A stretch of 64,000 nt of DNA, from IMG/VR virus record IMGVR_UViG_3300025000_000001, one strand, 5' to 3'. The position numbers and the translations under genes were made by a program. This stretch comes from an uncultured virus (IMG/VR IMGVR_UViG_3300025000_000001) (taxonomy: Duplodnaviria; Heunggongvirae; Uroviricota; Caudoviricetes). Shown piece after piece: positions 17,021 through 64,000 of the stretch. The notes under the pieces are model-generated. The model saw only the letters and a program-made list of their open reading frames with translations. It had not been told where the DNA came from and did no database searches. The stretch's first letter is position 1; each line of letters starts with the position of its first letter.

Positions 17021-17021
17021 G

Positions 17022-17179: not shown

Positions 17180-17261
17180 TCGAGAAGAAGGGGGTCGAAC
17201 CCTTATGCCTTTCGACGCATGATTCTAAGTCATGCCTGTCTGCCAATTCCAGCACTTCCCG
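17180..17261 (-). tRNA. tRNA-Leu (UAG)
   Basis: Acceptor stem CGGGAAG/CTTCTCG; GGAATTGGCAGAC; stem CATGA/TCATG with loop CT-TAG-AA; variable arm; GGTTCGACCCC. Confidence 0.92.
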
Positions 17262-35544: not shown

Positions 35545-35612
35545 TTTTACCTCTTATGAAAATCTACTTTTATCGTTCAATGATTACATTCTACCACAAC
35601 ACGAAAAATCTG

Positions 35613-43009: not shown

Positions 43010-44041
43010 TTAGCGACCTAAATTTACTTCGGCGTATTCTGCGAGAACATTGTAAGCCCGTTCTGCAATTTTTGCACGATTACCAAAGAGAATTGAATTC
43101 TCAATGGGCTTTTTTACGACGCCAGAATGTGTCGTCATTTCAGTTATAGAATTCATCAGCCCCCAAACATTGGGTCTGATATCAGTTCCGGCAGAAGAAA
43201 ATAAGTAATAAGCCAAATCTCGGTTTTTTGTTGCTTCCGCAATCTTTTCGTCTCGCTTGACAACTTGCTCTGCCTTGATGACTTCGGGCTGAAAATCCTG
43301 AACGTTTTCTGGATTTGGAAAAATATTGAAAAGCAAGCTGTAAACTTCTTCTTTTGATTGCAGAGCGACCTTAGCCATGTTGTTGAACGTTGCAGAAACA
43401 TCCGACAATTTATCGTTTGCTTTTTGCTGGATGTGAGCCATCCACAGTGCGAGATCGCGTTCGGCAGTTTTTGAATTATGCTTAGACATCATCAAGCGAC
43501 GATTGGTTTTAGAATTGTCTGCTTCTGCACGTTGAACGGCCAACACCAGAGTATTAAGACATACGACGCGTTTTGAAACAAAATAGAGAGAGTTTCCCAA
43601 GACCCCATCGTAGCCTGCGCGAAGCAGGCCATATGTTCGCACAACATCATAATTGTCAACGGTAATTGGGTCTAAGACCCAGGTAACAAATAATTGGCCT
43701 CCATCATCAAGGATGCCGAGAGTTTCAACCGGAGCGCCGCAATGTTCATCGTAGATGCGAGCTATGTCAATCGGTTGAATAACCTTGTAATCCTTCCCGA
43801 CAGTTCCTAGATTTCGTTCTTTGGGATCGGTGGGAACTGGCGACCTCACAACGAAGCGATCACCGATTGCCGCCATTTCGCCGTTGAGTTCACCGAATAA
43901 GTTACGAACTTCGACACTATAAGTTCCCATCTCCTCCATAGTTTCAACCGCTGTGCGCGGACGAAGATTGCAGATACCTTTTTTGTGCCATTCGGCAGTT
44001 TCAGACCGACTATAGAACATATTCCCAAGAATTGAATCCAT
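43010..44041 (-). CDS. DUF932-family phage/plasmid protein
   Basis: AEWH..G, LGTVGKDY.VIQ, ETLG.L..G, RVVCLNT and WGLMNSITE. Confidence 0.85.
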   Translation of the reverse strand: MDSILGNMFYSRSETAEWHKKGICNLRPRTAVETMEEMGTYSVEVRNLFGELNGEMAAIGDRFVVRSPVPTDPKERNLGTVGKDYKVIQPIDIARIYDEHCGAPVETLGILDDGGQLFVTWVLDPITVDNYDVVRTYGLLRAGYDGVLGNSLYFVSKRVVCLNTLVLAVQRAEADNSKTNRRLMMSKHNSKTAERDLALWMAHIQQKANDKLSDVSATFNNMAKVALQSKEEVYSLLFNIFPNPENVQDFQPEVIKAEQVVKRDEKIAEATKNRDLAYYLFSSAGTDIRPNVWGLMNSITEMTTHSGVVKKPIENSILFGNRAKIAERAYNVLAEYAEVNLGR

Positions 44042-45934
44042 TTGTTTTTCCTTTCTAAATTTGTTTTATCTAACTTGATAATCAAATTATACTACCAAAC
44101 TATTATCTTGTCAAGGGGGAAATCTATTATCAATCTTCCAAAATGGTCTTATTTTTAGCCAGTATTTTTTCATAAGACTAAGTTTGATCTGATGTATCTT
44201 ATTTCTCAGTGTAAAGAATCTAAGGTCATCATTATCGGAATATCCCCAAACACTAGAAAAAATACCAATTCTTTCTGCATAAGCACCATAACTTTCATAG
44301 TAATCATAGCAGCGATTTATCAAGCAATGTTCGTATTGTTCTTCTGTGTATGCGCCACCCTCGCCCAAGTAAACAGTCAAATCAGTTTCACCACCACAAA
44401 TGGGGCAGCAGCCTTTTAGTTTCATTCTTCATCTCCAGGGCATTCTAAGCAAGATAAAACGTATCTTTCGTGTGCTTTAGTATCCCAAGTTTCTTTTTCG
44501 AAATCAAACCAACCATTTACAAAAGCGGCTTCAACAGGATCGGCCATTCCGCAAACTTTACAAATATTCCCAGGCCAATCCCAAGTCCATTTATGAGCCA
44601 TTTTTAGAGTCTTATTATAGGGTTTCGCCGTTTTCTTCATTATTATTCCTCTCATTTCTCCTCTTCGATTTCCTTACTAATTTTTGAGTAAGCAGCAACT
44701 CCATGATTCTGTAGTGTTTCCGCAATTGCAGAAAGATTTTTTTCAAGGAAATCAATTTGTTCGTCTTTTTGCTTAATGAGCACCAATAGATACAAAATAT
44801 AAGAAAACCAACCCAAAATTAAGGCGATAATTCCAAAAATTAAAACATCCATTTTTACACATCCTTAAAGTCTTTTTCTGAAGCACGATCAAAAATAATT
44901 TGATGATCAGGAAACATCCCTAAAAGATAATCACATAGGGAATGAATATTTTTATCTCTTGTAAAATATCTTCCGTTGCCGGAAGGAAAGAAGGCAACAT
45001 AATCCTCAGAAAATTCTCTTTTTTCAATCCATATTTCTAGTTTCATTTTACCCATCCTCACGCAAGACCCATTCCAGGTTAAAAATTATTGCTTCTAATT
45101 TATGTACTAATTCCGTATAATTATCGTGTGGACGTTTATGATAAAATTCAACAGCGCGCTTCAGGTCTTCAATTCTATTTTCAATATCTCGTTTAGTTTT
45201 CATTTATTCATTTCCTAGCACCCAATTCAAAGCTAAAATCATGGCAGATAACTTTAAGATTTCTTCATCATTCTTAACAGATGGAGGATTTCCAATCTTT
45301 ACAGCAATAGCAAATCCGAGATCGCCCAACTTGGCTAAAATCTCATCTTCGGTTTTCATTTTCTTTAACCTTCAAACATCATTGATAAGAAAATTGTCGC
45401 TTTCGACATACTCAGAATCCTCTCGATAAAGCCAAATTGGATTATCCGAATACATCCTTCCGCTTATTTCCAAAACATATTCATAGATCGGAACACCCCA
45501 ATCCCATCTGGTATTTCCGGTTCTATGAAATTTTATAAATTGCTTAGTCATAAAACCTCACTTTTACCACGCCATTTCATAATTGAATAAATGTCAATAA
45601 AGAAATTCTTATTAACGTGTCTTTGGAAAAATCCATTAATTCTTCCGATAAGCCACCAGACTTCGAATTGAAAGTTTTTGTATTTTAGTTTTTTAACGTG
45701 ATAATCACGTAAGATTTCTTTCCGCTCAACCAACCTTTCGATTGCGCTCATATACGGATGGGAAAGAGAATATTTACTTCTCTCGGAATCTTCTCTCCAA
45801 GAAGGTAGCGTTTCCCAGTCCATCGGTTTCTCAACAGGAAAATCATTGGGCCATTTCCAATGATTGAACACGTCCCACCACTCTATCAATTTTTCTTCGG
45901 AAAAATCTTTCAACTGAATCATGTTTTACTCCTC

Positions 45935-46405
45935 CTACTTTACAGGCCAATAATAAGGTAAAGTTACACCTTGTTTAGTAACTTTAATTGGAACAGCCGG
46001 TTTTTCAGTCCAGCCGAATTCAGAATACCAATCATAGTCTTTATACAGTAAAGATGAACGATGAGAAGAGTGAAAGCGATAGTCACCTAGCCAGAGTGGA
46101 TAATTCTTGTTTCCTCGATAAGAATTTACACCATATTCGATATAATACTCAAGAAACTTTGGATGCAGAGTGTCTTTATAACCCCTGCGAACCCATTCTT
46201 GACACATATCCATTCCGTATTGAGCTAGAGCCAAATCAAAACCTTCCCACATTTTGAAAGCGGGGTGGTTACGCCAGCCCTTTTGTTCGGGTTTCCCCAT
46301 CAAGAGAAGCAATTGATAAGCCTCTACTCGTTGCTTTCCTAATCGTCTCATGTCTAAACATTGTGCTGATCGGATGAAACTTTCATATGGTAAAAATGTT
46401 TGCAT
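45935..46405 (-). CDS. MSMEG_6728-family protein (pyrimidine dimer DNA glycosylase / DenV-like)
   Basis: MQTFLPY, LD.RRLGKQRVE, W.NHPA..MW, EW..RGY.D, H.SHRS.LL.KD and YYWP. Confidence 0.88.
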   Translation of the reverse strand: MQTFLPYESFIRSAQCLDMRRLGKQRVEAYQLLLLMGKPEQKGWRNHPAFKMWEGFDLALAQYGMDMCQEWVRRGYKDTLHPKFLEYYIEYGVNSYRGNKNYPLWLGDYRFHSSHRSSLLYKDYDWYSEFGWTEKPAVPIKVTKQGVTLPYYWPVK

Positions 46406-46491
46406 AATCTTTTTCCTTTCTATACGATTATACACCCGATAGATTATTTTGTCAAGGCTTTTTGGTTCCACTATCAGGTCAACCAACAAAC

Positions 46492-46947
46492 CTATTCATC
46501 AAAAACTTCTCGAAGATTTTCATAATCCCAGAAATAAAATTCTTCCGTATAACTGTGAATATTCTTGGAAAGATAAGTAAGCGATTGATAAAAAATTCTG
46601 TGACCATTTTCTGTATCAACTACGAAAAATAGATATACAGGCATCTTACTAATTTTGCCAACCCTGCGATAACTTTTGAAATAACTTATCTCGATTCCAA
46701 GAGTATAATTTCCATTAAATTCTCCAAAGGTAGACTTGTGCTTGACCTCAACCCAACTGGTTATTTCATCGGTTTTGAATACTATGAAATCTGGCGCAGG
46801 ATAATTCTTTCCATTTTTTCGATAAACTTTTTGTCCGACTCCTGGTCGGGGAACAATTGGAATTACAGACCATCCGTCGTTTAGAAGATACTCTTCAACA
46901 ATATCTTCCCCAATTCTCCCAAAATCCAACCGATTATTGAATGTCAT
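46492..46947 (-). CDS. PD-(D/E)XK restriction-endonuclease-like protein (paralog 3)
   Basis: FGRIGE, APDFIV, WVEVKHK, MPVYLFF. Confidence 0.75.
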   Translation of the reverse strand: MTFNNRLDFGRIGEDIVEEYLLNDGWSVIPIVPRPGVGQKVYRKNGKNYPAPDFIVFKTDEITSWVEVKHKSTFGEFNGNYTLGIEISYFKSYRRVGKISKMPVYLFFVVDTENGHRIFYQSLTYLSKNIHSYTEEFYFWDYENLREVFDE

Positions 46948-49113
46948 AACCTCGCCATCCATCCGTATTTTTTGAAGAATCGCTTGAACCTGGGAATATT
47001 GTCACCCCTGTAAAAAATAATAGTCCTATCCAGCTTATCTGCATCCAACTCTTTTCCTACATATTTAACGCAAAACAGCATGGCTGAAAAGGATGATAAT
47101 AACTTAGGCAGTCGGGCATCAGACAAACAGGAATTATTCAAGATGAGAATCTCATCTTTGTCAGGGGAAAATCCTTTTTTCTCAACATTTTTAGAAACAA
47201 ATTCATCTGTAATTTCTGGAAGGAATGTAAACTTTCCTAAGACTTTCAAGTCTTCATTTTCGCCAAAAACATCAATAAAAGATTCATACAACGTGTGCTT
47301 CACCGAATTCAATTCATCTTCTGGTTCCATGTTTTCTCCTTCATAAAATAAACCTTTTCTCAACACTTCTTCTTAACTTCTTTTAGTAATTTTATTGCAT
47401 AATCTAATGCGTTTTCAATCGCATCTTCTCTGGAGGTAACATCAGTTACAGGAAAAGTCATAGATGACTCTTCGTCAAAAGAATGTTTTCGATGTACCTC
47501 AACGTCTATACCCTTTTCTCCACCTTCATTTCCAGTATCAGAAGAAAAATCTCGAAGGCGAATTGTAATTATGTCTCTAAAACTAGGTCTAATTGGATCA
47601 GCCATTTTTCGTAATTTGTCACCTTTCTATAAAAATTGACGATTAACGATTATCAAATAGTTCTTTTATTTAGTCGGTAATCTTGTCTAATACCCAGAAC
47701 AAAAACACGCAAGGCCCAGGAAGAACCATCGCAATATAAACAAAGAGGGGTAGAGTCCCAAAAGACTCACCAATCATTACTGCGATAACGAAAAAGAGTA
47801 AGAAGAACAGAAGACCACCGGCGATACAAAGATATAGTTTTACCCATTTATTGATTTTCATTTCTTGGCCGCCATCACATAAGAAGAGATAAGAATAAGC
47901 AACCAAACAATCACAGAAAGACACCCGCCAACAAAAGATTCAAAAATAGAACACCCCGAATTTAAAACCATTTCATACACATATCGAAACACAAGGAGAG
48001 AAGAAAGAACTGAAAGAGAGAAGGTAAAAAATAATTCCATTTTTAATTTTCCTTTTTAGAACTATTATTAAACTCATCGAACATTTCGAATAGTTCAGCA
48101 AAGTTTACTACTCGAATATTATCACCATTGGTCATTGCCTTGATCATAAGGCAATTTTTACTTTCACAGAATTTTAGAAATTCTACCAAGAAGTCAAACA
48201 CGATTTCTTTTCTACGTTCAATATAATTCATTTAGTTTCAGCCTTTTCAAAAATTTCTAATGCCACATCGAAATCAGTTCCAGCATATACAATCTTGAAA
48301 TTACTACCAGCAAGATTGATTACCTTCCAAATGCGAGAACCTTTTTCCCAATATAAACGATGAGTTATACCGGATATATAAACATAAGTATCATCGCTTT
48401 GTAAAAGTCGAATAAGATTATTCTTCATCCAAACCTCCGTTTTCGACATATTCTAAAATTGCATCAGTCATATTTTTACCCTTATAAACAAGATTATAAC
48501 TCGCGCTGATATCCGAGAACTCATTTTCAATATAAATTCTTTCAACAACTCGATAGATTCCTTCGGAACAAACGGACAGAGAAATTCTACCGTTGGCAAT
48601 AGTTCGCGGGCCTTCCGCAGACTTAAACCATTCTAAATTACTTTTTGCAGATATTGATATCATTTCAGTTTTTCCAAATCACGAATTATTTTTAGAATGC
48701 TGGATATTTCTTCTTGCATAGTATCGTTCTGAGAATTCAACTCTTTGACAAGCGGGTCGTTTTCATCCATATCTTTCATTGCTTCTCTGATAATTGGTAT
48801 AAGGCGCTTTTTCGCTTGCCTGTAAGTCTCTTTACTGTTTTCATTTTCTTCTGGGTAATTCACTTTTTATTTCCTTAAACTTTCCTTAGTTCTTACTTGC
48901 GATTTATAAGAACTTTGGACATGATAACGGCCAGCATATATAGAACGACGCGTTCAAATGACGGACTTTCAGGATATGCAAGAATATAAAAACTAGTTAA
49001 AATCAAACCACTCAGAGCAGCAAACGTATTTTCGAATTTCATTTTTATTATCTCCTTTTCTTATCTACAAGTATTTTATCATGTTTCTTTCTATCTGTCA
49101 AGGGGTAAAAACA

Positions 49114-49142
49114 TAAAATCCCCGTTTTAGGCGGGGATTTTA
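49114..49142. terminator. Intrinsic terminator hairpin
   Basis: TAAAATCCCCG-loop-CGGGGATTTTA after the 49152 stop codon. Confidence 0.75.
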
Positions 49143-49151
49143 ATAGAATAT

Positions 49152-50276
49152 TTAGTTTCCTTGTAAACCGTTTTTGAGCATCCATTCTTTTCGTACTTTG
49201 GAAACATAGCCCTTTTTGCTTTTTACATACTCGGAAACAAATTCATTGTTTCTATATTTCTTTGGCAACTCTGCAAGAGCCATGCTTTTGCAGATGTGGG
49301 TAACACCTGGAATTTGATTTGTTTCTTGATATATGGTATTAATTGTTTCTAAAATAAATTCTTTGCTCGCAGAGTTGGAAATAGCCCTAGAAACTTCCTC
49401 TGGCAACTCGGAAACATTGTTCTCTTGTTCTACCGAAGTTCGTCCATCTTGTTTCCTAAACTGAGTAGAGGACTTGTGGGAATAGTCTGGAACCTCATCT
49501 GTTTCAACAGCGAAAGAAGGAGTTTGAGCGAAGGAAGTATTTCCAAAATTACTCTTTTCCCAATTTACATATTGCATTTTCCAGTTTCCAAATTGTTGTC
49601 TAGCAATTTTCAACCAATCTTTATATTCTACTTCGTATCTTTGATCTTCTCGTTTAGTTTCCTTGTCTAGTTCAAAGTGATACGATTCTTTTTTCATTTC
49701 ATAAGTCACCATCTCAACTCCCGCCATATCGCCGGAAACCCATTCTAGGGCGGTAATCAAAGCTAAGGAAACCGCCAGCACCCAATCAATAGCTAAAGTT
49801 GTAGATTGTAAAAGTTCGCCAGCACCAGAATTCATCAAGCCATTAAAGGATTGCCCGAAACCGGCAACCAAGCTAATTGCGGCAGCAACAAAAACCCCAA
49901 TGGTCAAAGATTGCTGAGAAACCTTTCGTTTGACATAGGCTGAAGTAAAAGCAAGAGCAACCAATCCAATGTTTACCGCTCCCAAAGCAAAAATAGATTC
50001 AATGGTTGCAAATTGGGGGCTTGCTCCGCTATTTACGGCAACCCGATAAATAATGTCATAAACTCGCATTCCACTAGCGCCAACGGCGCAAATACCAGCA
50101 CTAATTGCCAGCCAAAACTTCAAAGACAATTGGGGATGTCTTGTAAAAACATCCTTCTTTTCTGGGGGAGGATTCCTGGTTGAATAATCTTGCAGATAAG
50201 CATCAAACTCATAATCCCTTTGATCGAGATATGAGTTTAATCTACGCTTTTTTTCATCGTGATTAATTTCCGCCAT
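49152..50276 (-). CDS. Multi-pass membrane protein with coiled-coil and soluble C-terminal domain
   Basis: About four TM segments; AGGAG RBS before ATG at 50276. Confidence 0.7.
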   Translation of the reverse strand: MAEINHDEKKRRLNSYLDQRDYEFDAYLQDYSTRNPPPEKKDVFTRHPQLSLKFWLAISAGICAVGASGMRVYDIIYRVAVNSGASPQFATIESIFALGAVNIGLVALAFTSAYVKRKVSQQSLTIGVFVAAAISLVAGFGQSFNGLMNSGAGELLQSTTLAIDWVLAVSLALITALEWVSGDMAGVEMVTYEMKKESYHFELDKETKREDQRYEVEYKDWLKIARQQFGNWKMQYVNWEKSNFGNTSFAQTPSFAVETDEVPDYSHKSSTQFRKQDGRTSVEQENNVSELPEEVSRAISNSASKEFILETINTIYQETNQIPGVTHICKSMALAELPKKYRNNEFVSEYVKSKKGYVSKVRKEWMLKNGLQGN

Positions 50277-50349
50277 TATTTCATTCTCCTGTAAACACAA
50301 CTCTCTTGACAGAATTTCCGCCAAGAGAGTATTTGAATTTTAGATAATC

Positions 50350-50856
50350 CTAGTCGGTGATTGTCCCGTAGGATTCGGTATAGTCCTGGGGAGAATTTGC
50401 ACTCGTTACCTCCCGTCCAAAATCTTTGGTAAACGCCGGTTGATTGGTTTCTTTTTTGTTTCCCTTAGAAACAAAAATCAAAGCTGTCACTCCAACAATA
50501 ATCAGACCGATCCCCCAAACGAGAGCGACCATAAAACCAGCAGTCATGGTCTGAGCCGCATCTCCAGATTTGGCAACTTCAACAATCGCAGTATATCCGG
50601 CAATACTTACTTCGGCCACCGTCTCATTGCCGTTGTTGGCAACGTCTGCTACGGTGTCTAGTGCCCGATTTTCAAAGTCTTGCTCAACGGCGACTTCGCC
50701 GTCAATTTTTGCAAGTTGAACGGCAAGATCGTTATCAAGAACCGCCTGGGTTGCAGCCAGAGCCATCTCTGTCTGACTGTCTAGTTGCACCATCATGTTG
50801 ATCCCAAAAAAAATCAATCCGCCTAAAACTAATAATGCCAATAATCTCCAAAACAT
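50350..50856 (-). CDS. Two-TM Ala/Val-rich membrane protein
   Basis: AGGAGG RBS before ATG at 50856; N- and C-terminal TM helices. Confidence 0.7.
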   Translation of the reverse strand: MFWRLLALLVLGGLIFFGINMMVQLDSQTEMALAATQAVLDNDLAVQLAKIDGEVAVEQDFENRALDTVADVANNGNETVAEVSIAGYTAIVEVAKSGDAAQTMTAGFMVALVWGIGLIIVGVTALIFVSKGNKKETNQPAFTKDFGREVTSANSPQDYTESYGTITD

Positions 50857-50857
50857 C

Positions 50858-51019
50858 CTATTCCTCCTTGACTTCGGTTTTCTTTGCAGTTTGGTTCTTG
50901 CGCCACTGTTCGGCATCAACAGCAGCCCAATACCCAAGCCCCTTGTCGCCACTATTCAGGCGACGGCGAATAACTTCCGCCTGCTCACGAACTGGATACG
51001 AACGAATTGCCTTTGTCAT
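50858..51019 (-). CDS. 53-aa hypothetical protein (below the ORF-track cutoff)
   Basis: AAGGAG RBS; MTKAIRSYPVREQAEVIRRR...VKEE-stop; promoter upstream. Confidence 0.6.
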   Translation of the reverse strand: MTKAIRSYPVREQAEVIRRRLNSGDKGLGYWAAVDAEQWRKNQTAKKTEVKEE

Positions 51020-51391
51020 CTGATTTCTCCTTTTCAAAATTTATCGAAACTTCATAGATTCTAACACAGATATTCCAATCTGTCAAGTAAATAAAAGGCC
51101 AATTTTAGAATTACAGATTGGGGTTATTGACCGTTAAGATGCCTTCTATTTCAGCCATAAGCCATTCAATATCATACCGATGATCTGGGGTGACAGCATA
51201 CCAAGTTTTAGCGCATTGAGCAACTGATACAACCCCATTCACGGAGCGAATAATATCAATCACATTGCCGTCAGCCCACACATAAAGTAGATTGTCAATC
51301 AATTCGCCAGTCACAGAGTTGTAAGCAAATTCTACTAAAATTTCTTGTTTCTTTCCATTATTCATTTTCTTTTTCCTTTATAAAAGAGTTA

Positions 51392-51952
51392 TTATATATA
51401 TTTTTCAATTTTGAACGGATATTGATTTAGAGTTTCAAAATCTTTTATGTGAAATTCTATTGCCGGTTTCCCGCTAAACTTTACAATATTTCTATCGCCT
51501 GAAATTTTATTTAACACAAGAACATCTTGGTAATGAATGTTGTATAATCCGTCTTCTTGCGGCATTACTAGAAAAACAAGCGTTGTAAATTTAGTCTTTT
51601 TGGCAACAGATACATAGCCATTGAAATTCTGGCGATTAATTTTTATTAGGTTGAGAGGATAATTGAACCCTTTGGATTCTCCCCATCGAAATTCACCTTG
51701 TGGATTTTTGTAAAAAAGAATGTCTGGCATTGCCGCTCGAATTATTTTTCCATCGTGATCAGTGAATTTAAGAAGCGGCCCATGAACATCTTCTACTGGT
51801 GCAATATATTCACAGCGAGAATATTCCTCTATCATATCGGCGTTCAGGGTTTCTCTGTTCCTGTCGCCAGCAGCAAATCTATATCCGAAATGTTTCTCTA
51901 AAAAATTAATCAAAACCTCCTGCATCATATCGCCAAAATCATTGCTGTTCAT
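51392..51952 (-). CDS. PD-(D/E)XK restriction-endonuclease-like protein (paralog 4)
   Basis: DFGD..Q, MPDILF, WGESKG. Confidence 0.65.
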   Translation of the reverse strand: MNSNDFGDMMQEVLINFLEKHFGYRFAAGDRNRETLNADMIEEYSRCEYIAPVEDVHGPLLKFTDHDGKIIRAAMPDILFYKNPQGEFRWGESKGFNYPLNLIKINRQNFNGYVSVAKKTKFTTLVFLVMPQEDGLYNIHYQDVLVLNKISGDRNIVKFSGKPAIEFHIKDFETLNQYPFKIEKYI

Positions 51953-52664
51953 GCGATAAAATCCTTGACCGACTCCTCTTGAAGTTTCAAGCGCAATGTC
52001 TCTACATCAACTTCTTTAGAAAGTCTTTCGGTAACTTCGATTTCTTTCTGATAAACATTCCAAACAAGTTCATCAAACGTAATCCAAGTGAAATCATCTT
52101 TATGAGAAAATTCTACGCATTCAAAGTCACTAATCATTCCAGTAAAAGCAATTTTTTGTTTTGGGGTATCGTTTGATTGCCAGGAAAAATATTTCTTTTT
52201 GACAACATCTTTCTTGTTGCTGTACTTTTCAATCAGAGAATGAACCTGGATGTATTGCTGAGTAATCTTAGTCCATTCATCCTTTTCACTAGAAAGCCCA
52301 AAGAGATTTGAAACAGTCATTAGAGCATCATAGATTTCAGATTTGTTCATAAAGCCTCCTTATTTGACATACCCAAGTATACCGCGAAAGTTCATTTCTG
52401 TCAAGAGCCAATATTCACTAAATGCTAAATTTTATTCATACCACTTGCTAAAAATTTCGTTGGGAATATACTCTACTTGTTTCTGTGTGTGATTGTTTTT
52501 AGAAACTCGATAGAATGACACTGATGGGGAAGTTTCCAATAAGTTGCAAAGAAAATAATAGCAACCCTTGTCACTGTTTTCCGGCAAATATATCTCGTAA
52601 TTTCCGCCATAAATCGTAAATGTGCTAAACTTAAGCATTCTTCTAAAACTCCTCTTTTATGATC

Positions 52665-53171
52665 CTAAACAATATCGAACAGACTAAACATCTCTTGTGA
52701 AAGTTGTTCCGAATGAAAGAATATGTAGGCTTCCTCGTTTTTATCATTGGCGTCTTGAAACATTTCTCTGTGCGTTTCCATCTTTTTTATCTCAGATAGC
52801 CTGCACCAGAATATTTCGTAGTTGTCTTTATCGCCAATGAAGTATACAATTTTCACAGGAACTTTTTCTTTTCTCTGAACAATGTCATAACTGTTGAAAC
52901 TTCTTTGTTTTAATGCCAAAAATCCGCCATGTTTATAGAATTCCCGCCTACTTTTTACCTCTATCAGCAACAGAAGTCTTCCCTTGTTCTCGGATTTGTT
53001 TTCTATATCTGGATATGCTACAAGATATTTTCCGTAATTTTTATGCTGTGCTACAGTTTCGCCATCACTATCCAAACACACGAACTTAACATATTCTCCA
53101 TCACCATAAAAATCAGATAAACGGATTATCTCATCTTCCGCCCAATTTGATTTATTGAATTTATAAGCCAT
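52665..53171 (-). CDS. PD-(D/E)XK restriction-endonuclease-like protein (paralog 5)
   Basis: WAE, YPDIE, LIEVKS, VPVKIVYFIGD, IFWCRL. Confidence 0.7.
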   Translation of the reverse strand: MAYKFNKSNWAEDEIIRLSDFYGDGEYVKFVCLDSDGETVAQHKNYGKYLVAYPDIENKSENKGRLLLLIEVKSRREFYKHGGFLALKQRSFNSYDIVQRKEKVPVKIVYFIGDKDNYEIFWCRLSEIKKMETHREMFQDANDKNEEAYIFFHSEQLSQEMFSLFDIV

Positions 53172-55069
53172 ACTTCTTCTTCTTTTCTTCAATTCTTTTT
53201 GAGCGTTCTTCAATTTCTTTGGGGGTGAGAATATCGGACAACTTTGGTAATTCGTAGTCGTCCAACCCCAATTCCGGATGATTTTTTGAAAAGTCAGGGT
53301 CATTTAATTCGTATGACAAAACCAAGTCTTCATCAGATTCCAATACTGCAACATTTGCGAAAGCGTCAGTTTCATCGGCTTCACGAATACCAGCAGACCA
53401 GGTTAGCTTTAGAATATCCTTGAGCGTATATTTTTCGTAGACTTTATGAATGTTCAACATCTCATACCACTGTTCAAACGTCAACTTTTCCATATTTATC
53501 CTCCTAAAATCAATCACTTATTCTATGATAAAAGGTTTCTTTTGTTTACTTGACTATTTTACCACATTATTTTGTGGTGTCAATAAGGAATTCTCCCTCT
53601 TTCTTAGTGGTGAAATATTCTACAAAGCATCGAGCATTACCGGTAGGAGTTTCGCTTTCATATCGAAAGGTTTCAAAAAACTTAGTTTCTGAATTGTAAT
53701 GAGAAATATCCTTGATGGTATAAGACTTCGCGCTATTGGGGGCGAAATGTTTTGCTTTCGAGTGAAATGATTTCATAATCACATCTAAATCTGCAATTTC
53801 TTGCACACCCAGAACATAATACCAATCCGACATTCTGCCATCAACTCTAATTATCATATGTTTATCCCAACCATTGAAAACTGCCATCAATAGCATCTTC
53901 AAAATTGAGAAATTCCAGAATATCTAGCTCTTCATCGCTGAAGGTTTTGCCACCAACAACAATTTGAAGTTTTTCATCATCTTTACGCATCCAGGTATCT
54001 TCAAAGAGAGTTGACCATTCATCATTCCCAATTGATTTTAAAATTTGAAAAACAGCTTTATACTTAGCATTCTTAATCATTTCAAAACCTCCTCATAAAA
54101 AGAGTATTTCATTTGTTAATCCTCTCGACGACCATAATTATTATAAACGCTGTCTTCTTCAACCCAGGGGGTTCTACAATTTCCACAAGTCCACTCAGCA
54201 CAAGAGCAAGTTCCAATGTGATAAACATCGGGCCAATCAGTCAGAATTTCATCATCTGAATATTCTTCTGCGCCATCAGCCAAGCCATCAGAATTTACCA
54301 TGCGAACTCCATCCTGCATATTTACATACCGCCAGTTATATGCGGAATATTTATTGCAAGCGGCGCAAAATTCTATTTCTTCAAGTTCTACCAGACGATC
54401 AAATACCGCTTTGGTATTGAGAAAAAAATCATCTAAGTCCCAAATTTCCTGCGAAGTCAAAGATGCAATGGTTGTCATTTGATTTACTCCTGTCTGAATG
54501 TTTTATTTATTGAATGTATTATACACCCGATATTTATTCTTGTCAAGAGGGAAATTTATTCATCGTGCTGGGGCTGATCCTATTTGTTTTCTTCGTAAAA
54601 TTTTTTATTGACACTTTTTAGAGCAACAAAATCATCAGGCGAAATTCCTTGAGTCAGCATGGCTGCAAGCAAGAATCCATCAAAGAATTGTTGAGCATAG
54701 TCACTTCGATGATTTGTGTAAATTTTTGACATGTCTTCGACAATATCATCATATGAAAGTTGCATTTCACTCTCCTCTCGCAGCATGTTGGATTGTTGAC
54801 CAGAAATCAAAGATAATTTGCTCCGTAACTGGAATTCCAACATCTGAGAGAAAATCCTTCAGAAGAAGTTCTACGCCAACCCCAGAAACTTTCCACAAAA
54901 GAAAGTTTGCTAAGGCTTGCTTTTGCTCCTCTAGGGGGATTTTCTTATTGGTGAATTCTACAAATCCGTGAACATTGTCATAAAATCGAAGTTTTTCCAT
55001 TTGATTTACTCCTTATTTCTTATACTCAAAGTATAACCGATAACTTCAATCCTGTCAAGAGGTAAAATA

Positions 55070-55101
55070 AAACTGACTAGAAATCAATTCTAGCCAGTTT
55101 A
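55070..55101 (-). terminator. Terminator-like hairpin
   Basis: AAACTGACTAGAA / TTCTAGCCAGTTT, followed by a T-run on the minus strand. Confidence 0.6.
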
Positions 55102-56512
55102 TGTATCAAATTACCAAATTTACAGTAAAACGCCACAAAAGCCTTCCTGGTGGCAAACAGAGGGTGTTTTCGTAAAGTTTTGCATGGGTAAAATGTTATT
55201 TTTACTCAATCGTATCTTCTTCTTCATCCTCTTCAAAAACAAAGGTTGGCAAAATCAGATAAGTTAAATGTTTTGGGGCGCGACCATCCTCTAAGCGTTC
55301 TTGTAAAACCTCGGTAGCACGAACCATACTGACAAATCGCTCCCTACAAGGTTTTGGAAAAACCTCAGAGTTATAACTATCGTGGATAGCACCCCCAAAA
55401 CCTAAATGAAAAATACGATACCAAACATTGTGTAATAGACTATTACGCATTGAAAGCTCCTTCAATAGACTCTGCAAAACTTTCTTTATAATCATCAACC
55501 CAAACTAGCTCCCAAGTTGAACAATTTACAACCCGATATTTAGTATTCTTTTTCGGTTTGCTCTTATAATGCCAGGGCCATCGAATAAGAAATTCCGTAC
55601 AATCTTCATCCAAATAGCCCACAACATCGTTTTTCTTAGCAAGAAGTTTTTTATCATGCTCTGAAACATATTGGGAGCGCAAATTTTCATCAGTTGTTGG
55701 CTCATATCGAACGTAAATTTTCATAATATCGCTCCTAAAAGTCTGGTTTTATTCCGGCCAACCACCGGGTCCAGTTTCCCAACTATTTAAAGTCTTAGGA
55801 AACCGGTAGTTAGTTTTCTTGGACGCTTTCTTCAATCCTTCAATGTTGAAATGATTTTTGGCCGCTTCAAGGGTTACTTCTCGCAAAGTTTTCCCATCCC
55901 AAACATACCATTTAGTTTTAGGGTATATGTTCGCTTCAAAGCGATACCACTCGCTGCCTTCAAACCAAATATCAGTTCCGTATTTATCTAATCCCCAAAC
56001 AAAACTTTTGCCAGCATTCGCATTGATTTCTTCGATGTCGTAAGCAAAATCGGTTTGATGAAACTTGACAGTTTCGGCTACAATTTCAGTCATTTCTCGC
56101 AAAAGTTCTTTGTTCATTTCAATCTCCTTTTCGTTTGATTGAATATATTTTACACCCGATTGGGTTTCCTGTCAAGAGGGAAAACCCAACCAAACCGGCA
56201 TTCCCCAAATTCCAGTGGAGGCATGACGTAAAACGATCAGCAGTAGGGCCACAATCAATAAAAATGCTATAAATGAGAGAGCGGTTTTCATAACTTATTC
56301 CTTTTCCCAAAATCCGGTTTCGATTACAAAAAATTCATCAACTCCTCCGCTAGAAAACATTCCAAATCCTTCGGAATAGTAACCAACGGCTAGGGGATTT
56401 TCCTTCAGAAAAGAAAATACTTCATCTTGAGTCATAATAGCATCTCTGAAATTTGACATATTTTCTGTGGGTACAATTCTAACCAGCATATCAACCTCCT
56501 AAAATGTAGTTT

Positions 56513-56845
56513 TTATTCAATCTCATCCAGATTTGAAATTTTACCCAGAATGTTTTCTACTTCTGTTTCGTTTAGCCATCCCAAAACATCATCAGTAATC
56601 GGAGTAGAATAGTCCAATTCGCCGGTGTGATTGGTTACTGCGAGTTCCCACAAGCCTTTTTCACGCCCATAGGAAAACCGGTGTCTAACCACACTAGCGC
56701 CGCGCCCATTGCTAAAACGAAAAACATACTGAATGCCGCCATGCAAATTATTTTCCTCAGCAAACGGAAATCCAAACTTGATTTTACCATTGACAGCATC
56801 ACAAAAATCATCAAACAATTTATCCGCTTCATCTTGATCAATCAT
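56513..56845 (-). CDS. Conserved phage hypothetical protein
   Basis: F.NG.GASVV....SYG...GLWELAV...TPITDDVLGWL. Confidence 0.65.
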   Translation of the reverse strand: MIDQDEADKLFDDFCDAVNGKIKFGFPFAEENNLHGGIQYVFRFSNGRGASVVRHRFSYGREKGLWELAVTNHTGELDYSTPITDDVLGWLNETEVENILGKISNLDEIE

Positions 56846-57269
56846 TTTATTTTCTCCTAGTAAATTCGTTCTTTTATCTAACTGAATATATTTTACTCGA
56901 TTATTCTTATCCTGTCAAGGATAAGTTTATTCTAGCTCGTATCCCAACTTTCGCAATTCCTCATCACACCACTCTTTTCCGCTTCCTGCTGGCCCAATCT
57001 TCCAGTTCAGATTATCAAAGGAATCACCAGAACATTCAAGATTTCTAATTCGTGGATAAATATCTCCGGCGAAAGCATAGCGATTCGCAACATCTCGATA
57101 ATCGCTTCCCTCTATAACTCGGATTGAATAATACTCATAATTAGGAATTTTCATCCAGGGTGAAAGTTTCATTTTTACCTCCATCAAACCATTGTTTTAT
57201 TCTTCACTAAATATATTTTACCATAGATCGGCAGGGGAGTCAATCCCCAATTTCGAAAAATATTTTCCC

Positions 57270-57560
57270 TTTAATACTATTAAATATATAGTAGTATTAT
57301 ACTATTAGTATTATATATTCTTTTATTAAAGGTATTTAATTAAGTATACTATACTAGTAGTATTAGTATAATTAAAATAGTAGTAGTAGGGGCTGTGGAT
57401 AACTTTTTTGAAAAGGTAAAATCCGCCTAATATACCCCCATATATGGGGGTTAATGCCTGTTTTTAGACACTAACCCCCATATATGCCTGTGGATAACTT
57501 TTGATTTTCTGTGGATAACTTTCTAATAACTGTGGATAACTTTCTAATAACTGTGGATAA
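57270..57560. promoter_or_regulatory. oriC-like replication origin: AT-rich unwinding element, DnaA-trios and five DnaA boxes
   Basis: TGTGGATAA (= TTATCCACA) at 57394, 57489, 57510, 57531 and 57552; (TAG)4 plus a GGGGC spacer next to the first box; about 110-bp AT-rich tract; long intergenic gap. Confidence 0.85.
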
Positions 57561-60500
57561 GTCATCCGGGTAAAACCTCCGTTTTATCAGATGAAAATGG
57601 TCAACTTTGGGTAAAATTGATTTTTTATCCACTGGTAACAGTGTAAAACCATGAACCGATAATTACAGATAGCCCCAATTTCTTTATAGACTTTTCAATC
57701 TCGCTTCCATTCGGAATAATCACAACAATTCTATCTCCAACGGCAGGGGTAATTTTATGCCCGTTGGGAAGTGGATATTTATCGCCCCAGGGAACTTTAC
57801 TTCTGTACTCCGGAAGGCTATACCAGTTATGATCTTCTGCTAAGTAGATTAGTCGCTCTTTCATTTTACCTCCAGGATGTTAGGGAAGTTTTCACCCTCT
57901 CCGAAATCTTGCCAGAACTTGAAATCTGCATATCCCTTAGTTAGCATTTCGCTAACCGGACAAACTACCTGATAATTATCGTGATTAGTCCAGGCTTTTC
58001 CTGCTAAGGTGTGAGAGCCATCGTCTTCAGCAGACTCGCTTTCTACGATGACTATACATTCGCTCAATTGACCTAAAACATCAGCGACAATAACTCCCCA
58101 GCCATTAGTCCAGTATCCTTCAGTCAAATCCCAAAAGACACAATCAGAGCCTTTCTTCTTCAAATCTTCTCGAATTTCTTTCTTTTCAATCCGATCAGCG
58201 ATCAATCGGATTCGCAGAGTTTGACCGTTGTTTTTCTTGATAAATTTTACTTCCATTTTCGTTCTCCTTATTTAGTGATAAATATATTTTACCACAATTT
58301 ATTCTGCTGTCAATAGTGAGTTTTATTCCATTTCAAAGCCGGAATTCTTAGCACAAGAATAACAATAAAACTTTTTGTCTTCAGAGCCATAGTATCTTGC
58401 AACCATTTCACAGAAGGAACACTCCCAAGAATTTATTGGTACAATATGGCTGTGAAGTTTTTTTCCAACAAATTTGTATTTTGATGTGAGCCATAAAAGT
58501 TTTTGAGTCATGTTCTTACTCCTTTATTCATTCGATAAATAAATTATACTACAAATCAATCCTGTGTCAAGAGGGAATTTCCGCCAATAATTTAATATCA
58601 AATTCAGGTTTTATCCCATGACACTACAAGCCATTCTGAGGCTGTTTGGAATAATATACGTCAATTGTATACTATTCAATACAAAAAGCCCCCAGAATCG
58701 TTTCTGGAGGCTTGTAGAGGCATGTTTTTGTATTTCTGCCATTATTCTAAACAAATAAGGCTTGATATTCTGAATCAAAATCAATTACAATTTCAGGTTT
58801 GCCAGCCCACAAATCCCACATCCGGTCTTCAATTTGCCAAATTTCTCCAGGCTGAACTTGCAAATACTCATATCCCTTTCGGAGATTCAATTCAGTCCAT
58901 TCTTTTCCGTTCGGCTGAGGCTTGATCTTTTCGTAGAATGCGCCATCTAATTCTAGCATCAGTTTTTCGGCTTGACTTCGAGAGTTTACATTAACTGAAG
59001 TCACAGAGAGATAACCGTTTTCCTGAATGACTCTAACCGACTGAGGGAATACAACCCGATAGAAATAATCTCGTTTCATCTTACCTTTCCTTATAACCTT
59101 CTGCTACAAGTTTAGAAGTAAATTCCGCCAACCTTTTCTTGTTCTTGAAGATTTTTAGATCAAAGAATTCGCTTCCATCTTTGTGAGTTTTTTCGCCATC
59201 ATGGAAACTAACAGAATATTTGGATGTTCCGATTCCGTATTGGGTATAAAAAACTTTGTTTGAAATGCTCATTTTAGTCATCTCCTAAAACTTGTTTGCA
59301 ATAAGAGTGTAATTCCTCTATTTCGTCTTCTGATAACTTCCTACCGGAATAAGTCATGTTGTAAACCTTCTCGACAATATCCCTAAGATCAGAAGATAAG
59401 GTAATCAGTTCTCCAAGAGTTGAGTCGCTAGAACTTCGGTAAAACCTAATCCAGTCCGTCAAGCTCATTTCGTGTAACTGTTTCATTTTATTTTCCTTCT
59501 TCATCCTCTTGCACTAATCGGGCATTCAAATCCCACACAATCGAATCGATTTCATCGTAAGATTTGGCAGCATAAAGAGCATGTGCCAACTCGGTAGCAT
59601 AATCTGCTACAGCACCAGAACCAAATAGACAATACAAAGCCCTTGCTACATCGTATTTTGTGGTTTCGCGGCTGTCAAATTGATCACTCAGGGGAATAAC
59701 TTCGATTTTGTGTACAGTTTCAATGGTTAAAATTGGTTTCATGCTAATTTTCCTATTCAATCGTAGTGGTATGAATGTTAGTCGCGCCGATATCAAGCAA
59801 ATCTTGATAAAAATTATTGTACTGTTTCGCGCTCCAGGTAGGGACAATCTGCCAACGTTTGCGCCCATCCCTGTCAGTCCATTCAAAACGAGTTTTAGCA
59901 TTCATGGCCCATCTCCTTTATCAAATGTAACTTTTATTCTAATCCGCTTCATAGACCTGTTTAGCGCCGCCGCGACCCAATTTGCCGGATTTTAGAAAAT
60001 TGAAAGAATGCTCTGCAATCCAGTGAGAGTCTGAAGTTAATTCTACATTCGGAATGCCGCCAGGATAAATACGCATTACCCGATCTAAATTCTCTACGGT
60101 CAAGCGATAAATAAAAGCCGCTTTGACTTGCTTTATCTGGTCAGGTGTTAGATTTTCGCCTTTCACTAATTTACCCATTTGATTTAACTCCTGTTTGCTT
60201 ATCTTTTGTTTCTAACTCTTGATATATTATAAACCAAGAGTTTTATTTTGTCAATAGTCAGTTTCGGAAACCTTGAAGATAAAAACTTCAGACCCTTCGC
60301 GATTCCGAACGACTGCCCGATATTCATTGATTCCAATGGATTCTAGGGTAAACTTTCTGGAATAGTTTTCTTCAATATATTCACTGATTGAAAACACTAC
60401 ATCGTCCGTTGTTGAAAACTTATCCAGCGAAATTTCAGCATAGTAAACTTCAACTTGTGTCATGTTTTCCGCCATTATTTAGATTGTAGCAAAGAAATCC

Positions 60501-62764
60501 GCAAACTTGCAGAGAGTATTGTAAGTTCCAACGGACATTCTAACTCCGGTATTAGGGATTCCAGTCCGCAAATACCAAGCGTAAATTTTCAAATACCACT
60601 TTGAGAGTAATTTACGTTCAGCAGGTGTAAATTGGGCCAAAAATTCACGCTTACCGCGTCCATAATTTTTGTGGTCGTAAGTTTCAACAATCACAAAGAG
60701 GCGTTTAATATAATCAGAACCAAAAACAGTGACGGTTTTTACACCGCGAAAGTCTACTTGTGGATCGTCTTCATCACTCCGCAAATATTGGAGGGTTTCA
60801 TCGTTCATGTAGAAATTATTCATAACGTCATTCAGGACAGTTTGTTTACCCATTTTTATCTCCTTATCGTTTGATAATTCAATTATATCATATATTCGCC
60901 AGAATGCAAGGTTAAAAGGGCATCAATTTTCCGCCAATATTTACCATAAACAGGCATTCATAATTTCGACGGCTGATTTCAAGGTAATGATACCATCCGA
61001 ATCATATTTAATTCCAGAATCAGATGTATAGTCCAGAAAGAAATCTTTAGAGCGGATTAACGGCAAAACATCCGAAGGGCTAAGTCCCTTGTTTTTCGCC
61101 TTAGTATACCCGATGATGTATCCCCTAATTTCCGCTTTTAATTCATTTGATAAAGTTAGCATGTTTTACTCCTTTTTACTCCTAATTTCCGCCATAAAAT
61201 AGCATTTTTAGATATGTGTACCAGAAGGGTTAAACTCTTTTTCTTTTCCTTCACCCTTCTTAATGGCGTAGTTTATGATCTTCTTCATTTCTGCTAAAGT
61301 TCCGACAAATGGGGGATATGAATTGTAAACAGAATCTTTGCGAAAGAATAAAAACCAATCTCCAGTTAATGAATTCTGTACAATCTCAATACCCTTATAG
61401 TCTACCTTGTTTTGCGCCATGATTACTCCTTGAACATCCGATCAAAGTAGATTTGTGAAACTTCAAATTTCCAGTCTTCAGACTGAGAATCAAGCCAGTC
61501 TCTAAAATACGCCATAGAATCAAGTTTGGTTGCATTCTCTGTTAGTGGCCCTTCAGCATAGCAGAGATTGAAAAGTTCTTCTAGCACATCGTTATATTCT
61601 TCAGGTGAGATATCCATTTTTGCTCCACTAAATGACAGTTTTATTATCCGACTTTGACAAAAATCTTGACAGTTCCCATTGCTGGATTTATCGCCATTAA
61701 TTCAATTCGATAACGAATTTCGTTATCACCAACAATTAAATCTCCGGCAAAAATTGCCATTTCTTCACTGGTAAAATGTTCTAAAAATCCGACAAAATTT
61801 GAAGTTTCAAATCCGTTTTCGTAAAATAAAATCTTCATTCCGTTTACTGAAGTCATTTTTTATTTCCTTTCTACTATGATTATACCGCGATTTGCGCCTA
61901 CGTCAAGAGTCAATTTCTGCAAAGTCACTGAAAGCCCATTCAACCCACTTGTTAAACATTTCATCCCACTCTGCCGGGTCATCTGGAATTCTGATTCCTT
62001 TTTCTGCGTACCATGCTAAGGCGTGGTCGTTCATTGTCGTTTTTGAGTTGTCCATTTTGCGCCTATGTCCTAAAAACAAAGATGACTATAGAATTTCACG
62101 GCATAACTCAGGCTTGAAAATTCTTTAACTGTTTTTCCATTGATATTTAATCGAAAAACCTGATAATTCGAGAGATAGTCTTCAATTACAAAAACGTGGA
62201 AAAGTTCTTTATTACCATATTGATTAGCTTCAGCCGCCAGAAGTACACTATATTCACCCGACAAATCGTTATACTCAGTCATTTTTTAGCTCCTATTTTT
62301 CCGCCATAAAATACTTCTTTGATTATTCCGACTAAAACGATCAGAATTCCCCCTAAAATCCTGATTTTATTAATCTAAAGCCTTCGAAATTGCCATGCGC
62401 GCGGCAGTTTTCAAAATACAAGTTTGCCCGGCCTGAGTCAAGAAATCTCCGCATTCCTTTAATTCTTTGCCGGTTTTCCCCCAATTTAGACGCATTGCCA
62501 AATTATCCCAAGAATTCAACGGGATATTATTCAGGTGTGCATCAGTTTTGAATTTAGATTCCAGATTTTCAATTCCAAAGTTTGAGACAACGGCAGAAAC
62601 GAATTTTCCGGCAAATTGCTCATAATACTGGTTGAAATTGCATTCCTGACTCAGATATTGTTTTCGCGTGTACATTTTTGTCTCCTTAGATTTCTGTTTC
62701 TACCATACTCCAATTTCTTCTTAAAGTATAGCAGATTTTTGGTATATGTCAATGGTGAACTTTG

Positions 62765-63238
62765 CTAAAAATCGAAGTTGTCCCAACCTTTAGCGCCTTC
62801 CCATTCTGGAAGGCGGCGAATTGCCCAGTCCTTAATCCATTCGAGAATTTTCTTGGCTTGCGATTTCTCCCAACCTTCAAACTCACAACTCTGGTAATCA
62901 ATGCAGGAAATAGCCTTCAGGCATTCAATGGATGAAATCTTTGGGGTGAAAACAAACTCATAAGGATGTGTAGAAACAGAACTATTGTACAAATCGTTGA
63001 CGCTTTTATAATTCGCCTTAATCAAAACTTCGCCCAATTTCTGCAAATCTTTAACGTTGTCAAAATTGTAAATCTTGCGCCCCAGACGAATCCGATAAAG
63101 ATTGTGGGCATTTGACCAAGATAAAACGGCGTTGATCGTAGAATCCTGTACAATGAATGCGCTCATTTCTAAAATTCTCCTTTTATTATCTGAATTGGTT
63201 ATAAATTTTACTCTATCGAAGTTCCAAAGAGTATCCAT
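62765..63238 (-). CDS. Conserved phage hypothetical protein
   Basis: LI.AN..SVN..Y and LKAI.C.DYQSCE...W..S.A; the true start may be the ATG at about 63166. Confidence 0.6.
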   Translation of the reverse strand: MDTLWNFDRVKFITNSDNKRRILEMSAFIVQDSTINAVLSWSNAHNLYRIRLGRKIYNFDNVKDLQKLGEVLIKANYKSVNDLYNSSVSTHPYEFVFTPKISSIECLKAISCIDYQSCEFEGWEKSQAKKILEWIKDWAIRRLPEWEGAKGWDNFDF

Positions 63239-63332
63239 GCTAGATTCCGACTTATGAATTGCCGGACAAAGGGATTTGTTACCCTTCAGAACTTCTAACA
63301 GTAAACTTTATTCTTGAATATAGTTTACTTGA

Positions 63333-63638
63333 TTATTCCGAAATTGTCAATACCCAATTTTCGGGTAGATTGTCCTCTATTCCATATGCCCAATTCGCAC
63401 TATTTTCCTCTTCATCATCATAAACGGCGCAAACTTCAAGGTAAGTACCAAAATCATGGGGAAAAGATTTAATAGTGAAATATCCAATTACATCTTCTGG
63501 CGTAGGAAACAGAGACTCTAACAGTGATTTGAAACGGCGCGCCTCCTCTAGCATTGCGGGCATATAGTTTTCTTTGTCGGTAACACAAACACAGTTTTCG
63601 TTAACCGGGGAAGTTCCAAGAGTGATATAATCTCGCAT
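63333..63638 (-). CDS. Conserved phage hypothetical protein
   Basis: MRDY..LG..P..E.C, KSFPHDFGTYLEV and E..LPE.W. Confidence 0.65.
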   Translation of the reverse strand: MRDYITLGTSPVNENCVCVTDKENYMPAMLEEARRFKSLLESLFPTPEDVIGYFTIKSFPHDFGTYLEVCAVYDDEEENSANWAYGIEDNLPENWVLTISE

Positions 63639-63685
63639 GATCAAAATTCCTTTTATCCTTATCTGTTTTATTTTTCGATGATTGA

Positions 63686-63714
63686 AGTATAAGCGATATC
63701 TTTTGTTTTGTCAA
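63686..63714 (-). promoter_or_regulatory. sigma70-type promoter (leftward)
   Basis: TTGACA-17 bp-TATACT on the minus strand. Confidence 0.8.
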
Positions 63715-63864
63715 GCGGTTTTATAAACTCATTTTATACCAGTTTTACGCCCAAAAAAGCTAAAATCAGTCTGTTTTGAGCGCATAAATCGCTTATTTCA
63801 TTTATGTTTAACGCCGGTTTTTGTCGGTAAAATAGACCAGGTTTATCAGATTTGAAAAAAAGAC

Positions 63865-63892
63865 TTGACATTATAGGCGATTTGTGTATAAT
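63865..63892 (+). promoter_or_regulatory. sigma70-type promoter (rightward, divergent)
   Basis: TTGACA-N16-TATAAT with an extended TG. Confidence 0.8.
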
Positions 63893-63924
63893 ATGATCAT
63901 ATTCAATAAACAGGAGAAACGATC

Positions 63925-64000
63925 ATGGCAAAAATTCACCCGAATTATACTAAATACCCCGGATTTTATAACAAAAATGGGGATTTAACTTATTTTGCGT
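63925..64000 (+). CDS. Start of the first plus-strand gene (partial)
   Basis: AGGAG RBS, then ATG; open to the window end (MAKIHPNYTKYPGFYNK...). Confidence 0.7.
   Translation, partial: MAKIHPNYTKYPGFYNKNGDLTYFA

Follow-up and report, generated by a model that had tools for sequence, protein, structure and literature searches.

Structure of the gene-free gap

The uncultured virus IMGVR_UViG_3300025000_000001 (Caudoviricetes) was analysed over a stretch of 64,000 nucleotides (hereafter the window) that is part of a larger phage genome, has a G+C content of 36%, and is covered to 91% by open reading frames (ORFs) on the minus strand. Between two co-oriented ORFs, both without a known family, lies a gap of 437 bp (57188-57624), the largest gene-free gap seen in 44-64 kb, and along the minus strand this gap contains a phased array of four DnaA boxes, a long inverted repeat, a fifth DnaA box, a GC-rich spacer, a run of DnaA-trios and an AT-rich tract. 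The last four of these resemble the basal unwinding system (BUS) defined in Bacillus subtilis incC (Richardson 2016 and 2019; Pelliciari 2021, PMC8287927). With moderate confidence, we hypothesize that the gap is a DnaA-dependent opening module of the oriC type, most likely serving as a replication origin of the phage.

The perfect DnaA box TTATCCACA occurs five times in the window, always on the minus strand (57394, 57489, 57510, 57531 and 57552) and always inside the same 167 bp, against a mean of 0.78 copies in shuffled windows, none of which reached five in 100 shuffles. Boxes with at most one mismatch are not enriched over the whole window (17 found, 20.4 expected), and the signal is therefore a cluster of perfect sites. 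Start-to-start spacings of 95, 21, 21 and 21 bp correspond to about 9, 2, 2 and 2 helical turns (at 10.5 bp per turn), so that all five boxes lie on one face of the helix. Four of them, each in the context G-TTATCCACA-G, make up the array (57489-57497, 57510-57518, 57531-57539 and 57552-57560, minus strand), a series of perfect matches that is also the top-scoring tandem repeat of the window (period 21, score 104); a preliminary description of this DNA had already placed these boxes exactly 21 bp apart, and they are present at those positions. The fifth, trio-proximal box (57394-57402, minus strand, 0 mismatches) starts 95 bp from the nearest box of the array. A one-mismatch box, TTATCCACT (57625-57633, plus strand), has the opposite orientation and is located at the stop codon of the upstream ORF.

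Between the trio-proximal box and the first trio is a 4-bp GC spacer (GCCC, 57390-57393, minus strand), followed by the DnaA-trios (57375-57389, plus strand), which comprise four consensus 5'-TAG-3' trios (3'-GAT-5') at 57378-57389 and a looser fifth trio of the NAN type, AAA, at 57375-57377. The minus-strand sequence of the four consensus trios, CTACTACTACTA (57378-57389), occurs a single time in the window, where 0.00 occurrences are expected. The box, spacer and trios announced earlier are thus all found, in a better reading frame: the letters first parsed as GCCCC-TACTAC are read here as GCCC and four CTA triplets after the box. Past the trios extends an AT-rich tract of TAC/TAT-type repeats (57270-57377), a candidate duplex-unwinding element of about 110 bp, with 87% A+T over 57270-57379. 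The tract includes a period-14 repeat at 57285-57319, and by nearest-neighbour energy no 100-bp duplex in the 64 kb is less stable than positions 57278-57377 (z 5.3, as compared with 3.2 for the runner-up).

An inverted repeat (57439-57486) with 21-nt arms and 6 nt between them sits between the four-box array and the unwinding module; 57439-57459 pairs with 57466-57486, the arms being 90% complementary. The palindrome (57435-57450) and partial copy (57474-57486) that had been noted as separate elements are present and are better seen as parts of this one repeat. Its predicted fold is -38.1 kcal/mol as RNA (z -7.0) and -13.9 kcal/mol as DNA (z -5.0), and no Rfam family matched it at threshold.

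Identity of the core to bacterial chromosomal origins

Under the published search rules, such a module has a box that deviates from the consensus at no more than 2 positions, then a 0-16 bp spacer in which about 4 bp form a GC-rich gap, and three or more NAN trios (PMC8287927). The phage module agrees with all three (0 mismatches; GCCC, 4 bp; four GAT trios and one AAA trio), and the DNA beyond its trios is AT-rich and unstable, as in the bacterial system. Like BUS origins, the phage thus has a perfect box, a 4-bp GC spacer, 3'-GAT-5' trios on the correct strand and an AT-rich tract beyond them, along with extra helically phased boxes upstream and flanking genes that are co-oriented with the box strand.

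We scanned the exact 25-nt core (box, spacer and trios) against one genome per species, 185,579 species in all, and found it in 45 bacterial species of several phyla. When the longest open frame on each side of these copies was translated (85 frames), 34 of the 45 proved to lie beside dnaA and/or dnaN (31 with DnaA, 3 with only the beta-clamp), five beside dnaG, all of them in Chloroflexota, and six beside neither (including one truncated locus and one without a testable frame). The bacterial cores lie on the coding strand of their flanking genes and are followed by an AT-rich stretch, as in the phage; the box-to-trio arrangement is the same as in the 34 copies adjacent to dnaA or dnaN, and the orientation in the phage is therefore verified empirically. 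In B. subtilis, incC was inactivated by reversing its boxes (PMC6669920). The phage count of five NAN trios is also the most frequent one in the bacteria, shared by 24 of the 45 copies, and the A+T content past the trios is higher in the phage (0.87) than in all 45 of them (maximum 0.85).

Similarity between the phage and the 45 bacterial loci ends within 28-37 nt around the core, the best match being 37 nt long. Extended homology to bacterial origins was considered and ruled out: upstream of the core at most 13 of 30 positions are identical, whereas the 95th percentile among bacterial pairs is 20. In 57403-57427 (minus strand), the sequence GGCGGATTTT starts 25 nt upstream of the trio-proximal box, and in one Clostridia genome (locus L070) the GGCGGATTTT 10-mer is found at an equal distance, with a second box occupying the intervening positions; this shared position may be due to chance, as overall upstream identity is not above background. 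Among the bacterial copies, the five from Chloroflexota (L045, L047, L054, L071 and L076) have further boxes downstream of the core and neither dnaA nor dnaN beside it.

Replication genes and a model for initiation

DnaA, the DnaA DNA-binding domain (Bac_DnaA, Bac_DnaA_C), Rep, DnaD and helicase-loader families have no match among the 138 minus-strand ORFs of the window, which is also the outcome of the search for the phage's own dnaA or rep gene that the preliminary description had suggested. Within the window, therefore, no phage initiator competes for the role, and host DnaA is the simplest candidate binder of the boxes. The gp4-type primase-helicase expected from that description is encoded at 12569-14515 (minus strand; PHROG 239, E 1.6e-89; Pfam DnaB_C, Zn_ribbon_DnaG and Toprim), and this fused protein is a candidate to enter the opened origin. 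A phage DNA polymerase of 862 aa is likewise present (8713-11301, minus strand; PHROG 1252, E 2.2e-142); the name PolB once given to it stays unverified, since only PHROG 1252 matched this ORF, and neither Pfam (at E 0.001) nor the PDB sequences gave a match.

From the anatomy of the gap, the identity of its core to chromosomal origins and the instability of its AT-rich tract, we infer DnaA binding, opening, looping, helicase entry and origin use along the following lines, and consider the use of the origin through host DnaA plausible. Host DnaA-ATP would fill the five perfect boxes, all of which are on the same strand and helical face. The four-box array would serve as a loading platform and would bend or loop across the 48-bp inverted repeat to the fifth box; in B. 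subtilis, upstream boxes act at a distance with helical phasing (PMC6669920). A DnaA oligomer would then grow from the fifth box over the GC spacer onto the plus-strand trios, separating the strands, and opening would extend into the adjacent tract of 87% A+T. Either of two helicases could enter the bubble: the phage primase-helicase of gp4 type, for which single-stranded DNA is sufficient, or that of the host, brought in by DnaA. The phage polymerase would take over after helicase entry.

A broader proposal is that a phage with its own helicase-primase and polymerase starts replication via host DnaA on a stripped-down, single-box module, with the helicase loading itself without the host loader, and that this is a recurrent trick of unrelated phages; we offer it tentatively and regard it as rather doubtful. 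If true, phage replication would be tied to the master cell-cycle switch of the host, through an origin that DnaA alone fires on the same box-spacer-trio module as in bacterial chromosomes. A natural minimal module with a single box would also serve mechanistic work, including the question of whether a gp4-type helicase can enter a bubble opened by DnaA.

Several observations weigh against an origin fired by host DnaA. The first concerns the box itself: 43 of the 45 bacterial copies have a second box (at most 2 mismatches) directly adjoining it, whereas the best candidate in the phage has 3 mismatches, so that unlike most BUS origins the phage has a single box rather than an abutting pair. This absence matters because strand separation in vitro depended on the upstream box of the pair in B. 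subtilis; the tandem pair is nevertheless described as present in 57% of predicted origins and not obligatory, and the search program accepts single-box modules (PMC8287927). The earlier claim of an oriC-style unwinding module is hence strongly supported by the agreement with the search rules and by a core identical to those of origins, while its description as complete was overstated. Small ORFs without a family, rather than dnaA or dnaN, lie beside the module, its context being that of a phage and not of a chromosome. Secondly, GC skew, which the preliminary description had proposed as a check, is negative throughout the 64-kb window without a turning point at 57.3 kb; the one-strand gene layout may mask a replication signal in it.

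Thirdly, six records related by their primase-helicase (about 41-43% identity) have 0 to 3 scattered boxes and no cluster. Five of these are IMG/VR records (one complete and four 17-45% complete, as estimated by CheckV) with 1, 0, 0, 3 and 0 perfect boxes, and the sixth, with 1, is the nearest GenBank record, a 176-kb 'Bacteriophage sp.' whose primase-helicase is 42% identical; since these relatives are without the cluster, the module is not an old feature of this replication system. Close kin carrying the region, sought through a neighbouring 131-aa ORF, yielded one weak match in viral contigs and none in metagenome contigs. Finally, the part of the genome beyond the 64-kb window could hold another origin or encode a phage DnaA-like protein. 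The pattern of two palindromes was found at 8 loci in metagenome contigs, all unrelated (GC 0.46-0.64) and without a BLAST match.

The same origin might also be worked by another binder, namely a phage protein with a DnaA-type DNA-binding domain, encoded outside the window, that replaces host DnaA. Phages encoding a DnaA DNA-binding domain exist, such as the HTVC010P-type pelagiphages (PMC8477408), and the window shows part of the genome; a viral contig of 26.8 kb, identical to part of the window and not including the module region, is rated 20% complete. Such a replacement is very unlikely in our view, as neither Bac_DnaA nor Bac_DnaA_C was found among the 138 ORFs of the very 64 kb that hold the replication genes, and as engagement of the trios is reported to require the AAA+ domain of full-length DnaA (PMC8287927).

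Integrity of the assembly

An origin-like module in a metagenomic phage might be a piece of a host origin that was gained by recombination, or joined on by the assembler, and that has no function in the phage. The identity of the core to bacterial origins is in keeping with such a passenger or artefact, as are the related phages without the module and the public contigs, which break in the box repeat. These contigs, from four runs labelled groundwater and soil metagenomes, match the region with zero differences and break only within the 21-bp repeat, where breaks are expected because the assemblies were built from 31-letter words; in the deepest run, the depth of the shared 31-mer is about twice that of its flanks. 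Depth is nearly equal on the two sides of the repeat in all four runs (74.3/78.8, 6.6/8.1, 5.2/6.0 and 6.3/5.8). Positions 55500-57538, with the AT-rich tract, the trios and the boxes of 57394-57539, lie on one public contig of 40,314 nt that continues into phage genes.

No remnant of dnaA or dnaN is present at the module, either in the flanking ORFs or among the 138 ORFs, and resemblance to the 45 origins stops at the limits given above; selection is suggested by the regular 21-bp phasing and the extreme A+T content. The chimeric join with host oriC that had been named as the refuting case is thus unlikely, given a single 40-kb contig with phage genes and similarity that ends within about 37 nt, and we assign a very low probability to an inert passenger or artefact as a whole.

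Similar loci in other viruses and comparison with known systems

Paired boxes are common in viral contigs, where they occur at 22-bp spacing at 41 loci. The pattern of a box, four nucleotides and three CTA triplets was found in 17 stretches of viral contigs, as against 5 for the reversed pattern; 10 of the 17 stretches, corresponding to eight distinct sequences, hold three or more perfect boxes within 600 bp. In three viral records with spacer-trio loci, the perfect boxes are concentrated at one locus (10 of 11, 7 of 7 and 4 of 4), and a fourth record (complete, with terminal repeats, from the paired-box scan) has a single phased array that contains 4 of its 5 boxes and is not followed by trios. 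None of 60 ORFs flanking nine trio-bearing viral loci is a dnaA or dnaN; they include YqaJ, RecT, DUF1351, DUF1064, terminase and Rha, and several of them belong to phage replication or recombination.

Three unrelated IMG/VR contigs (L091, 2915-3060; L104, 2883-3060; L089, 2600-3030) have box arrays that lead into a tandem box, a 4-nt spacer, a run of CTA trios and then AT-rich DNA, with phage genes as neighbours (YqaJ, DUF1351, RecT, DUF1064; a Spo0A_C-like ORF) and no dnaA or dnaN within 3 kb. The gokushoviruses KT264804.1 (L142, 380-520) and KT264798.1 (L128, 520-760), single-stranded-DNA phages of 4.8-5.5 kb, carry a module in a non-coding gap, where several DnaA-box-like 9-mers lead to a tandem box, which a GC spacer separates from five CTA trios, with an AT-rich tract beyond them. 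In KT264804 the next gene is preceded by a promoter-like site, and other microviruses matched the same queries; in the literature we found no paper linking Microviridae with the DnaA box. If true, DnaA-fired opening at the gokushovirus module could allow the double-stranded form to be maintained in the manner of a mini-chromosome. Should the viral and gokushovirus copies be functional, mimicry of origins may be a general strategy that has been overlooked, and the module could mark origins, and possibly lifestyles, in metagenomic phages. A core match in Lactobacillus phage LpeD was rejected as spurious, being a tRNA-like stretch without a box.

DnaA boxes in the origins of phages and plasmids are already known. 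To our knowledge, phage origins are mostly uncharacterized, and those that are understood use a phage initiator, transcription or recombination; in the literature we found neither a phage origin with trios that had been tested nor a comparison between a phage site and chromosomal cores. Rep-dependent origins of plasmids and prophages (P1 oriR, F, pSC101 and RK2) have helper DnaA boxes and require their own Rep protein and iterons. The present phage resembles them as a mobile replicon with consensus boxes next to an AT-rich opening region, and differs from them in having no Rep family among the 138 ORFs of the window and in carrying DnaA-specific trios; no iterons were found in the gap, whose repeat families are the DnaA boxes, the palindrome pair and the AT-rich repeats. 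From BUS origins it differs further in the long inverted repeat between array and module, and in being a replicon that encodes a primase-helicase and a polymerase.

For megaphage G, an 'OriC' predicted by software comprises DnaA boxes, a spacer, a DnaA trio and an AT-rich region (PMC12484599). Unlike the module described here, that site is an automatic prediction in sequence of 52-58% A+T, and the passage that presents it makes no comparison to bacterial origins (PMC12484599); the sites in the present phage are perfect, phased and identical to chromosomal cores.

Closer in layout is the Lactococcus 949 group. In phage AM4 (KY554771.1; L001, 2150-2900) a non-coding gap of 870 bp contains about six iteron-like repeats of about 22 nt, a box array phased at 21 bp and three more boxes, and the box array is also found in AM5, LW81 and P1048. 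As in the present phage, the boxes have a 21-bp phase and the same flanking context (79.7% identity over 74 nt) and form an array in a large non-coding gap of a large phage; unlike in the present phage, no GC spacer or trios follow the boxes, and six iteron-like repeats of about 22 nt lie alongside. Clostridium phage phiCDHM19 (L143, 2495-2545) has four DnaA-box-like 9-mers 11-12 bp apart, located between integrase and regulator genes, without trios.

T5-like phages suggest yet another role, a signal for DNA entry or membrane anchoring, in which membrane-bound DnaA would grip the boxes and so pause or position the incoming genome. According to a preprint, 25 T5-like phages have DnaA boxes in conserved sets within their injection-stop region, for which this role is put forward (bioRxiv 10.1101/866236). 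The present site is similar in that it combines several consensus boxes with repeats or palindromes in a non-coding stretch among the early genes of a large lytic phage. In T5, however, the boxes are pairs 3 bp apart within the IRC/IRD inverted repeats of the terminal repeat, and their description mentions no trios, whereas here they form a 21-bp phased array with trios and none lies inside the inverted repeat. The T5 role is itself a proposal, its authors argue against a replication role for the T5 boxes (bioRxiv 10.1101/866236), and an opening module is unnecessary for DNA entry; we consider an entry signal extremely unlikely here.

Promoter-like sites and alternative roles of the boxes

The gap is also part of a promoter-dense stretch. 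In 44001-64000, small ORFs are separated by 16 minus-strand promoter-like sites that agree with the consensus at 11 or more of 12 positions (five sites are perfect), and because of this layout the 44-64 kb stretch suggests an early region transcribed by host RNA polymerase. Directly past the AT-rich tract is a further promoter-like site (TTGACT, 17 nt, TG, TAAAAT; 57215-57243, minus strand), with 10 of 12 consensus positions and an extended -10, which points away from the tract and into the ORF at 56927-57187.

In such a setting the boxes might act as a sink or sensor, binding host DnaA so as to alter the host or read its state and not for replication of the phage. As a sink, replicating phage genomes would soak up DnaA and halt new rounds of host replication; as a sensor, DnaA occupancy would tune the neighbouring early promoter. 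Five high-affinity boxes amid an early region with 16 strong promoter-like sites in 20 kb would suit this role, as would the promoter-like site next to the tract, the trio-less box clusters of the Lactococcus 949 group and phiCDHM19, and the distant relatives that replicate without such a cluster. DnaA-titrating loci (E. coli datA and the DnaA-box clusters of B. subtilis) are high-affinity boxes outside oriC that are not known to have an opening module. The phage cluster is like them in its high-affinity boxes outside oriC and unlike them in that trios and an unstable tract adjoin these boxes. A sink or sensor needs neither a spacer and trios in the exact geometry of an origin nor the least stable duplex beside them, and the 25-nt identity with chromosomal origins spans exactly the opening part; we therefore judge this role unlikely.

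A simpler possibility is that the gap holds transcription signals, the hairpin ending the upstream early transcript and the AT-rich tract being an upstream promoter element, with the match to origins incidental or secondary. In its favour, the inverted repeat is predicted to form a strong hairpin in the transcribed strand, the AT-rich tract has a promoter-like site just past it, and the co-oriented ORFs lie in a promoter-dense stretch. The hairpin, however, is not followed by a U-run and was not called as a terminator, the other promoter gaps of the window have no DnaA boxes or trios, and the phasing of the five boxes would be left unexplained, which makes transcription signals a quite improbable account. 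While the boxes as such can be explained by a DnaA sink or sensor, by transcription signals, by a T5-like entry signal or by an inert captured fragment, the exact opening geometry of chromosomal origins beside the least stable DNA of the window is explained by none of these four.

Other features of the window

The gap is flanked downstream by an ORF of 86 aa (56927-57187, minus strand) and upstream by one of 79 aa (57625-57864, minus strand), neither of which has a family match. Elsewhere the window encodes a DNA polymerase, a fused primase-helicase, exonucleases, RNase H, ribonucleotide reductase, RNA-repair enzymes, four tRNAs and a Xer-like recombinase. A 55-aa ORF (36785-36952, minus strand) matches the phage T7 gp5.9 RecBCD-inhibitor family (PF25708, E 7.9e-17). 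The stretch 33353-38191 (minus strand) contains an RNA ligase, a GmrSD_N-like ORF and RtcB, and together with the four tRNA genes at 16428-17261 it looks like a tRNA-repair kit of the sort that large phages use against host anticodon nucleases. The Xer-like tyrosine recombinase (283 aa, 19806-20657, minus strand) is located among the replication genes and could serve in dimer resolution of a circular, plasmid-like form or in integration of the phage.

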